Shown here in pieces: positions 8,813 through 47,872 of a stretch of 64,000 bases of DNA; the stretch's first letter is position 1; each line of letters begins with the position of its first letter. The stretch is from Escherichia coli. GTDB lineage: Bacteria; Pseudomonadota; Gammaproteobacteria; Enterobacterales; Enterobacteriaceae. The DNA is taken from assembly GCF_003334785.1 (NCBI RefSeq), contig NZ_QOWV01000002.1; one strand, 5' to 3'. Both the position numbers and the translations under genes were made by a program. Under the pieces are notes generated by a model that made no database searches, was not told the DNA's origin, and saw only the letters and a program-made list of their open reading frames with translations.

Positions 8813-9502
8813 TTACTCACTCTCTGCCGGTAATACTGGCATCCAGTCAATCGGCGTCTCGCCACGTTGTTCCAGCCACTGATTTGCCAGCACAAAATGG
8901 TTGCAGCCAAAGAATCCACGATGCGCCGAAAGCGGCGACGGATGCGGTGCTTTCAGTACATGATGGCGTTGCTTATCTATAATCGCCCCTTTCTTTTGCG
9001 CATGCGATCCCCACAACAAAAACACCACGCCTTCGCGATGCTGGTTAATCAGGCTGATCACTTTATCGGTGAAGGTTTCCCAGCCGAGGCTGGCGTGGGA
9101 ATGCGCCTGACCTGCGCGTACCGTCAACACAGTATTGAGTAGCAGAACGCCCTGACGCGCCCAGCTTTCAAGATAACCATGATTAGGGCGGGTGAAGCCC
9201 GGAATAGTATTTTCCAGCTCTTTATACATATTCAATAATGACGGAGGAATGGCAATGCCGGGACGAACGGAAAATGCCAGACCATGCGCCTGTCCCGGTC
9301 CGTGATAAGGATCCTGGCCGAGAATCACCACTTTAACGTCACCCAACTCTGTAAAGCGGAACGCGTTAAAGACATCTTTTTGTGGTGGGTAGATAGTGAC
9401 GCCGGACTGCCGCTCGCTGGCGACGGTCTGAAGGGTATTAAGAAAATAGGGTTGCTGCTTCTCTTCAGCCAGCACGTCATGCCAGGTTAATTCGTTAGCC
9501 AT
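8813..9502 (-). CDS. ung: uracil-DNA glycosylase
   Basis: 229 aa [11 protein letters not shown]...[18 protein letters not shown]; canonical UDG family-1 motifs. Confidence 0.96.
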
Positions 9503-9632
9503 CTCGCTCTCCTGCGAATCTTCAATCCGCCTAGCTTAACTGCTTCTTTCTACAGAACAAAATCATGCTCATTTTTTAGACTTAAACGAGTGCAAAAAAA
9601 TGTAAATTGGTAAAATTTCACACCCGCATAAG

Positions 9633-9646
9633 TTGATGTAAAACAA
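9633..9646. promoter_or_regulatory. FNR-type operator (distal, imperfect) upstream of grcA
   Basis: TTGAT-GTAA-AACAA, 53 bp upstream of the perfect site; the spacing fits the -93.5/-40.5 tandem FNR arrangement described for this promoter. Confidence 0.55.
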
Positions 9647-9685
9647 TAAAATCCATTTGCGACCATACTTGATGTGTGGTTTTTA

Positions 9686-9699
9686 TTGATTTAAATCAA
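9686..9699. promoter_or_regulatory. FNR-type operator (perfect TTGAT-N4-ATCAA) in grcA promoter
   Basis: TTGATTTAAATCAA, an exact palindromic FNR/CRP-family half-site pair about 110 bp upstream of the grcA start. Confidence 0.75.
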
Positions 9700-9806
9700 A
9701 GATTCAAGGGTGTTTGAGGAGTATATATACACTCAAGCAACAATGGTTTTACCAATTGGCCGCGACAGGCTGAACAAATCAAATAATTTTGCCGGGGAGG
9801 CATCAC

Positions 9807-10190
9807 ATGATTACAGGTATCCAGATTACTAAAGCCGCTAACGACGATCTGCTGAACTCTTTCTGGCTGCTGGACAGCGAAAAAGGCGAAGCGCGTTGCA
9901 TCGTTGCAAAAGCAGGTTATGCAGAAGATGAAGTGGTTGCAGTAAGCAAACTGGGTGACATTGAATACCGTGAAGTTCCAGTAGAAGTGAAACCAGAAGT
10001 TCGCGTTGAAGGTGGTCAACACCTGAACGTTAACGTTCTGCGTCGCGAAACTCTGGAAGATGCAGTTAAGCATCCGGAAAAATATCCGCAGCTGACCATC
10101 CGTGTATCCGGTTATGCAGTTCGCTTTAACTCTCTGACTCCGGAACAGCAGCGCGACGTTATCGCTCGTACCTTTACTGAAAGCCTGTAA
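9807..10190 (+). CDS. grcA: autonomous glycyl radical cofactor (stress-induced PFL spare part)
   Basis: 127 aa [16 protein letters not shown]...RVSGYAV (glycyl radical motif); GGAGG Shine-Dalgarno. Track start at 9789 is 6 codons upstream. Confidence 0.95.
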
Positions 10191-10212
10191 GGCTTAAGTA
10201 GCAAGTTACTAA

Positions 10213-10243
10213 GCGGAAGAGGGCGACCTCTTCCGCTTTTTTT
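10213..10243 (+). terminator. intrinsic terminator after grcA (possibly bidirectional with eamB)
   Basis: Stem GCGGAAGAGG/CCTCTTCCGC followed by TTTTTTT. Confidence 0.85.
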
Positions 10244-10245
10244 CG

Positions 10246-40421: not shown

Positions 40422-40748
40422 ATGGTCTTCCTTTTTTTGCATCTTAATTGATGTATCTCAAATGCATCTTATAAAAAATAGCCCTGCAATGTAAATGGTT
40501 CTTTGGTGTTTTTCAGAAAGAATGTGATGAAGTGAAAAATTTGCATCACAAACCTGAAAAGAAATCCGTTTCCGGTTGCAAGTTCTTTATTCTCCAAAGC
40601 CTTGCGTAGCCTGAAGGTAATCGTTTGCGTAAATTCCTTTGTCAAGACCTGTTATCGCACAATGATTCGGTTATACTGTTCGCCGTTGTCCAACAGGACC
40701 GCCTATAAAGGCCAAAAATTTTATTGTTAGCTGAGTCAGGAGATGCGG

Positions 40749-42140: not shown

Positions 42141-42199
42141 ATTTTTCGTTTATGATCATCAAGGCTTCCTTCGGGAAGCCTTTCTACGTTATCGCGCCA

Positions 42200-46888: not shown

Positions 46889-47872
46889 ATGCCTACAAAA
46901 ATGAGAACAACCCGTAATCTATTATTAATGGCTACGCTATTAGGTAGCGCACTATTTGCCAGGGCTGCGGAAAAAGAAATGACCATTGGCGCAATATACC
47001 TTGATACTCAGGGATACTACGCTGGAGTGCGTCAGGGCGTTCAGGATGCGGCAAAAGATTCCTCAGTACAAGTTCAGTTAATAGAAACTAACGCCCAGGG
47101 TGATATTTCGAAAGAAAGTACCTTTGTTGATACCCTCGTGGCGCGTAATGTCGATGCCATTATTTTATCGGCAGTGTCTGAAAATGGCAGTAGCCGTACC
47201 GTTCGTCGCGCCAGTGAAGCGGGCATTCCGGTGATTTGCTACAACACCTGTATTAATCAAAAGGGGGTCGATAAATATGTCTCGGCGTATCTGGTCGGCG
47301 ATCCGCTGGAATTTGGTAAAAAACTGGGTAACGCTGCCGCTGATTATTTTATTGCCAATAAAATTGACCAGCCGAAAATTGCCGTCATCAATTGCGAAGC
47401 CTTTGAAGTTTGTGTGCAGCGACGTAAAGGATTTGAAGAAGTTTTAAAATCCCGCGTTCCCGGCGCGCAAATTGTCGCTAATCAGGAAGGGACTGTTTTA
47501 GATAAAGCGATTTCCGTTGGTGAAAAACTAATTATCTCCACGCCGGATCTCAACGCCATTATGGGGGAATCGGGCGGTGCGACACTCGGCGCGGTAAAAG
47601 CGGTACGTAATCAAAATCAGGCCGGAAAAATTGCTGTTTTCGGTTCGGATATGACAACCGAAATTGCTCAGGAGCTGGAAAACAATCAGGTGCTGAAAGC
47701 GGTAGTGGATATTTCCGGTAAGAAAATGGGCAATGCTGTTTTCGCGCAAACATTGAAGGTTATCAATAAACAAGCCGACGGTGAAAAAGTGATTCAGGTG
47801 CCTATCGATCTCTATACCAAAACGGAAGACGGTAAACAGTGGCTGGCAACGCACGTTGATGGTCTGCCCTAA
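46889..47872 (+). CDS. yphF: ABC transporter periplasmic sugar-binding protein
   Basis: 327 aa with signal peptide; periplasmic binding protein (ribose/LacI-type) fold signature. Confidence 0.88.
   Translation: MPTKMRTTRNLLLMATLLGSALFARAAEKEMTIGAIYLDTQGYYAGVRQGVQDAAKDSSVQVQLIETNAQGDISKESTFVDTLVARNVDAIILSAVSENGSSRTVRRASEAGIPVICYNTCINQKGVDKYVSAYLVGDPLEFGKKLGNAAADYFIANKIDQPKIAVINCEAFEVCVQRRKGFEEVLKSRVPGAQIVANQEGTVLDKAISVGEKLIISTPDLNAIMGESGGATLGAVKAVRNQNQAGKIAVFGSDMTTEIAQELENNQVLKAVVDISGKKMGNAVFAQTLKVINKQADGEKVIQVPIDLYTKTEDGKQWLATHVDGLP

Follow-up and report, generated by a model that had tools for sequence, protein, structure and literature searches.

The tandem FNR promoter of grcA (yfiD) in Escherichia coli and the conservation of its 53-bp geometry across Enterobacterales

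The intergenic region between the divergent genes ung and grcA of Escherichia coli carries two inverted repeats that resemble operators for the oxygen sensor FNR, which raises the question of whether both belong to the grcA promoter and, if so, what the second, imperfect one contributes. We examined this region within a 64-kb stretch of E. coli DNA (the window), where the gene order around the site pair is trxC / yfiF / ung / grcA / eamB / yfiE. GrcA is an autonomous glycyl-radical cofactor, which acts as a spare part for oxygen-damaged pyruvate formate-lyase. An earlier note on this DNA had named grcA as the downstream gene and the identification holds: the ORF matches the NCBIfam model TIGR04365 over residues 2–127 with 234 bits (curated cut-off 170), its translation includes the C-terminal glycyl-radical motif RVSGYAV, and RefSeq names the gene 3′ of the intergenic region autonomous glycyl radical cofactor GrcA. 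The features that frame the region are as follows:

8813–9502, minus strand: ung, from the ORF list
9795–9800, plus strand: Shine–Dalgarno sequence of grcA, GGGGAG, 6 nt 5′ of the ATG and at least 95% conserved in a 65-sequence alignment
9807–10190, plus strand: grcA (formerly yfiD), 127 aa, from the ORF, TIGR04365 and RefSeq annotation, with its ATG at 9807 and stop at 10190
10211–10238, plus strand: intrinsic terminator of grcA, a 12-bp stem with 7 G–C pairs and a T run

The ung–grcA intergenic region is 304 bp long. A query covering 9503–9807 (305 bases: the 304-bp region and the first base, A, of the grcA start codon) occurred in one copy per genome in 5426/5426 complete E. coli genomes and with 100% identity in many of them. 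Beyond grcA, eamB (10246–10833, minus strand) is an intact 195-aa ORF in the window; in strain ER1709, eamB is annotated as a frameshifted pseudogene, yet the ung–grcA intergenic region is 100% identical to that of the window.

The window was scanned with the FNR consensus TTGAT-N4-ATCAA, a 14-bp inverted repeat, and the counts were compared with those from 100 dinucleotide-preserving shuffles of the 64-kb sequence. The earlier note had reported a perfect and an imperfect FNR-type 14-mer with centres 53 bp apart; both were found exactly where it had put them, no coordinate correction being needed, and the centre-to-centre distance was measured as 53.0 bp:

9633–9646 (centre 9639.5), unstranded: FNR II, the upstream sub-optimal FNR site TTGATGTAAAACAA, at −93.5, with one mismatch (9/10 consensus bases)
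9686–9699 (centre 9692.5), unstranded: FNR I, the perfect-consensus FNR site TTGATTTAAATCAA, at −40.5 (10/10 consensus bases)

FNR I is the only perfect match in the window, against 0.09 expected from the shuffles (8/100 of which held at least one), while sites with no more than one mismatch number seven against 2.58 expected, a count reached by 1/100 shuffles. The pair of FNR-consensus sites exceeds chance. That only FNR I is functional, with FNR II a chance match in AT-rich intergenic DNA, is in our judgement extremely unlikely: one-mismatch matches do arise randomly (2.58 expected in 64 kb), and of the seven sites found four sit in coding or convergent-terminator regions, but by our own arithmetic only about 0.008 sites with no more than one mismatch would be expected within 100 bp of the perfect one.

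A related family of operators has also to be considered. CRP (cAMP receptor protein) is a paralogue of FNR and binds similar palindromes, and both repeats could on that account be read as CRP operators rather than FNR sites. CRP-type sites have a GTGA core and a 6-bp spacer, FNR-type sites a TTGA core and a 4-bp spacer; FNR I and FNR II each have the TTGA core with a 4-bp central spacer. Since FNR occupancy by ChIP and fnr-dependent expression are, moreover, documented for this promoter (PMC3688515), we regard the probability of CRP operators as practically negligible.

Elsewhere in the window, the one-mismatch FNR site TTGATGTATCTCAA (40448–40461) lies in the glyA–hmp intergenic region, 29–42 nt 5′ of the ATG of hmp, which is on the minus strand. 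In all likelihood it is the repressor site through which FNR is known to act on hmp, where Myers 2013 (PMC3688515) gives a predicted FNR site and earlier binding evidence from Cruz-Ramos 2002; with FNR I and FNR II, three of the seven near-consensus sites in the window are thus documented FNR targets. The other one-mismatch sites (17640–17653, 32376–32389, 42149–42162 and 47753–47766) fall in the genes rseB, purL and yphF, and in the interval where the 3′ ends of yphH and glyA converge; they are probably chance matches, in line with the 2.58 expected. An Rfam scan of the whole window returned no RNA family in 9500–9810. Its seven matches elsewhere, all at gathering level, are known E. coli features:

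69–184: 5S rRNA
11910–11952: ES036
18419–19250, minus strand: AsrC, antisense to rseC
22033–22247: rncO leader
25660–25736, minus strand: ohsC antitoxin RNA, next to shoB
34916–35063: GlmY sRNA
63735–63806: naRNA4

Whether the two FNR sites are placed as a promoter would require depends on the elements downstream of them, which we list here with the transcription start derived from the numbering in the literature:

9722–9727, plus strand: −10 element of the grcA promoter, TATATA, at a fixed +29.5 from the FNR I centre in 64/64 Enterobacterales and at least 95% conserved in the 65-sequence alignment
9733, plus strand: inferred +1 of grcA (9692.5 + 40.5; literature numbering)
9742–9757, unstranded: PdhR-operator-like palindrome AATGGTTTTACCAATT, centred at +17 within the conserved block 9739–9760 and overlapping the predicted ArcA site at 9723–9754

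FNR I shows class II geometry, with its centre 29.5 bp 5′ of TATATA and the site overlapping the −35 region. A sigma-70 consensus scan of 9400–10300 detected no full promoter, as is expected of an activator-dependent promoter in which the activator site replaces the −35 element. With this start, the 5′ UTR of grcA would run from 9733 to 9806 (74 nt). Park et al. 2013 predicted an ArcA site at MG1655 2714524–2714555, numbered −10/+22; read on the opposite strand, this site is window 9723–9754 (window position = 2724278 minus the MG1655 coordinate); this numbering again puts +1 at 9733, in agreement with the start derived from FNR.

The GGT-N3-ACC of the AATGGTTTTACCAATT palindrome stands at a fixed offset in 52/64 Enterobacterales, and among these 64 loci the palindrome is absent from Erwinia, Pantoea, Mixta, Brenneria, Pectobacterium and Rahnella. 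We take it to resemble the PdhR consensus, and it is likely the PdhR operator of grcA, an assignment we label putative. Repression by PdhR is relieved by pyruvate. At yfiD, PdhR is reported to repress and ArcA to act (PMC3181329, PMC3798270); the gene is induced on a shift to microaerobiosis, with its regulation given as FNR(+/−), ArcA(+) and PdhR(−) (PMC3181329). The sign of the ArcA effect differs by study, being ‘+’ in Wyborn 2002 and ‘−’ in Park 2013.

Conservation of this arrangement was assessed in grcA loci from 80 species-representative genomes, comprising 64 Enterobacterales and 16 Pasteurellaceae, by searching for the best FNR-like site 30–90 bp upstream of the proximal site and by aligning 65 distinct grcA upstream regions with MAFFT. 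A fixed-offset read-out found TATA 29.5 bp downstream of the centre of the proximal site in 64/64 Enterobacterales. The upstream site lies at 53 bp in 59/64 (58 plus Mixta, after correct assignment of its weak proximal site) and at 52 bp in 4/64 (three clear, the fourth, from Pantoea L065, degenerate). Two Pantoea genomes among the 64 Enterobacterales (L050 and L065) have no recognisable FNR II, which is therefore not universally required. That 59 of 64 loci keep FNR II exactly 53 bp away although the spacer diverges tells further against its being a chance match.

In the MAFFT alignment of 65 sequences, conservation is confined to islands at 9631–9646 (FNR II), 9686–9701 (FNR I), 9722–9727 (the −10 element), 9739–9760 and the Shine–Dalgarno sequence, and is low between them. 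Across the Enterobacterales, the left half-site of FNR I keeps T, T, G and A in 64/64 and T at the fifth position in 59/64, with a right half of (A/G)TCAA. The T, T, G, A positions of FNR II are invariant in 61–62 of 62 species, in 56/62 of which position 11 is A rather than the consensus T (AACAA vs ATCAA); its AA flank and its TAAA spacer hardly vary among the 62 species, and the flanks and central spacer of FNR II (AA-TTGATrTAAAACAA-TAA) are better conserved than those of FNR I. The FNR II 14-mer is also unchanged in divergent E. coli, E. albertii and Salmonella, whereas Yersinia or Erwinia species have ACAT or ACAG in this site. The order-wide conservation of the FNR geometry, together with that of a weakened FNR II, is new in this analysis. 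This conserved weakness fits selection for a site that fills only when active FNR is high, and FNR II is possibly under an overlapping second constraint. The sites, their spacing, their statistical significance, their conservation across the order and the fixed geometry to the −10 element are all direct observations of this study.

The divergent arrangement of the locus suggests another owner for the upstream site: FNR II might serve the ung promoter, bringing uracil-DNA glycosylase rather than grcA under FNR control. In favour of this, ung is the divergent neighbour in 78/80 grcA loci, with its ATG 137.5 bp from FNR II in the window. Yet among species that distance can be as short as 107.5 bp or as long as 241.5 bp, against a fixed distance from FNR II to FNR I, and FNR II therefore belongs to the grcA promoter. 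Inspection of the window sequence also revealed no −10-like element at class II distance on the minus strand, and ung does not appear beside yfiD in the available passage of the FNR regulon table (PMC3688515). We accordingly rate an ung-directed role as very unlikely and assign FNR II to grcA.

Within the species, 9620–9735 is highly polymorphic: 2505/5413 E. coli genomes are only 90–95% identical to the window here, and the 116-bp query covering 9620–9735 gave no megablast match in 13 E. coli genomes. When four divergent E. coli variants were aligned, both FNR 14-mers were invariant and variation fell mainly in the spacers at 9661–9680 and 9700–9717, with few changes just 5′ of FNR II. Two candidate elements between the FNR sites were considered and dismissed, namely a terminator-like hairpin at 9661–9681, the stem of which varies among E. 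coli strains and is little conserved from one genus to another, and an extra TTGAT at 9669–9673 as a third half-site, which reads TCGAT in the B-type E. coli strains compared (L082, L083) and shows no conservation. In the ung-proximal half, partly conserved blocks occur at 9531–9565 and 9591–9617 (TAGCTTAACTGCTTCTTTCT...ACAAAAT and TGCAAAAAAATGTAAATTGGTAAAAT) and are presumably elements of the ung promoter or 5′ UTR or additional regulator sites.

How the two sites act can be answered from the literature, as they are the already characterised FNR sites of the E. coli grcA/yfiD promoter at −40.5 and −93.5, the difference between which is the 53-bp spacing in the window. FNR binding, the sign of the effect of each site and the microaerobic peak of expression are all taken from that literature. 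At the yfiD promoter, activation comes from FNR bound at −40.5 and down-regulation from FNR bound at −93.5 (Green 1998; Marshall 2001, as summarised in PMC10208419, PMC3445967 and PMC11264516), and Green 1998 is the source cited for FNR occupancy of both sites; Marshall et al. 2001 (Mol Microbiol 39:747) is cited there for FNR at the yfiD promoter. Substitution of the key G–C pair in each half-site of FNR II (yfiD-m) or deletion of the upstream site (yfiD-P1) makes the promoter much stronger anaerobically than the wild type, and yfiD-WT is most active microaerobically (PMC10208419). An effect of mutation and deletion on expression already refutes the reading of FNR II as a chance match. The same promoter has also been put to use in engineering, to make expression depend on oxygen (PMC10208419).

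The earlier note had interpreted the pair as a class II site with an upstream modulatory site. This is the published yfiD architecture, in which the proximal geometry and the 53-bp spacing are the ones found across the Enterobacterales above; the tandem FNR promoter of grcA is already known at textbook level and the interpretation was correct. Its further claim of anaerobic control of grcA is backed by the literature with a refinement, in that the modulation by the upstream site is specifically negative and the expression peak is therefore microaerobic rather than fully anaerobic. The reporter experiment that it proposed, with site mutants assayed with and without oxygen in fnr+ and fnr− backgrounds, has already been published, with the outcome that it predicted.

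The sign of the upstream site deserves separate scrutiny, since it cannot come from sequence alone. Tandem CRP or FNR sites at many upstream positions enhance transcription (PMC3445967, PMC11264516), so that FNR II might be imagined as a synergistic class I-like co-activator instead of a negative modulator. FNR sites at −85 to −95 are, however, specifically repressive (PMC11264516), loss of the yfiD upstream site raises anaerobic activity (PMC10208419), and the title of Green, Baldwin & Richardson 1998 (Mol Microbiol 29:1113) states down-regulation. The co-activator reading retains in our view a very slight probability, and we proceed with FNR II as a negative modulator. At yfiD, FNR bound upstream suppresses activation without involvement of the alpha-CTD (PMC3445967), and down-regulation needs AR1 of the upstream FNR (PMC3445967, PMC3688515). 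The summary of Barnard 2003 in PMC11264516 describes FNR sites at −85 to −95 as strongly repressive at a model promoter and calls the exact mechanism unknown.

Genome-wide binding data agree with occupancy of the region. In the FNR ChIP-seq study of Myers 2013 (PMC3688515), yfiD is both bound and activated by FNR, its site being placed at −40.5, and the ChIP peak at MG1655 2,714,605 maps by coordinate to window 9673, between FNR I and FNR II. That the study gives only the −40.5 site for yfiD (PMC3688515) could be held in favour of a single functional site, but the resolution of ChIP-seq is too coarse to separate two sites 53 bp apart.

We are highly confident that the window contains the E. 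coli grcA (yfiD) promoter, a class II FNR-dependent promoter with a weaker second FNR operator 53 bp upstream, and, caveats aside, the analysis yields nothing that contradicts this explanation. In the mechanism we propose, falling oxygen would allow FNR to gain its [4Fe-4S] cluster and dimerise, and active FNR would first fill the perfect site at 9686–9699 (−40.5), where, lying over the missing −35 element, it would recruit RNA polymerase to TATATA at 9722–9727 for a start at about 9733. Under full anaerobiosis, more active FNR would be present and the sub-optimal site at 9633–9646 (−93.5) would be filled as well, an affinity-ordered filling of FNR I and then FNR II that we infer from the conserved imperfection of the latter. 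The second FNR dimer would sit five helical turns upstream on the same face of the DNA and, following the literature, would down-regulate through its AR1 face with the alpha-CTD uninvolved. The result is the microaerobic expression maximum known from the literature, at a point where pyruvate formate-lyase risks cleavage by oxygen and GrcA is needed; further inputs come from PdhR, whose repression pyruvate lifts and whose putative operator is centred near +17, and from ArcA.

More tentatively, and as a possibility that we think rather less than even, the features of FNR II—sub-optimal across the order, phase-locked at 53 bp and with conserved flanks—might mark a composite operator that another conserved factor also uses, ArcA, reported to counteract FNR there, being one candidate, or might reflect affinity and geometry tuned jointly for the oxygen level of peak expression.

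The grcA promoter is a classic case of one oxygen sensor acting through two sites that differ in affinity and position to give a band-pass microaerobic response, as suits a protein that repairs oxygen-cleaved pyruvate formate-lyase, and the retention of the 53-bp geometry and a weak FNR II across the Enterobacterales backs the importance of the published mechanism beyond E. coli. The 53-bp FNR layout was sought in the 16 Pasteurellaceae grcA loci and was not found. Instead, these loci have one or two FNR-like sites 42–44 bp apart, which sit 5′ of a conserved, near-consensus TTGAnn −35-like element and a TGATAAAAT extended −10-like element; in L045, L055, L059, L064, L069, L076 and L081, the elements lie about 85–140 bp upstream of the grcA ATG (locus position 1201). 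By count, the putative proximal site would be near −48 and the distal one near −92, and such a layout would offer a natural comparison for the mechanism of repression by upstream-bound FNR.

Set against known systems, the window shows no difference from the E. coli yfiD (grcA) promoter, sharing its locus, sites, 53-bp spacing and downstream gene, and its intergenic DNA is 100% identical to that of K-12-type genomes. Single-site class II FNR promoters, such as narG, dmsA, nirB and pykA in the ChIP-seq table of PMC3688515, resemble it in having a consensus site over the −35 region, a fixed distance to the −10 element and activation on oxygen limitation. Those promoters have their site near −41.5, whereas grcA has its activation damped by a second site, 53 bp upstream of the first, giving a peak at intermediate oxygen rather than a steady rise. 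Also comparable are synthetic promoters with tandem FNR or tandem CRP sites (Barnard, Green & Busby 2003; ‘Repression by CRP at a distance’, PMC3445967), in which an upstream dimer likewise represses a class II promoter within a narrow window (−85 to −95 for FNR); repression by CRP proceeds via the alpha-CTD, whereas yfiD does without it and needs AR1 of the upstream FNR. At the FNR-repressed genes ndh (tandem sites) and hmp (single site), too, extra sites or sites in other positions let FNR act negatively, but there its net effect is repression, whereas grcA is on balance activated by FNR, with self-limiting negative feedback.
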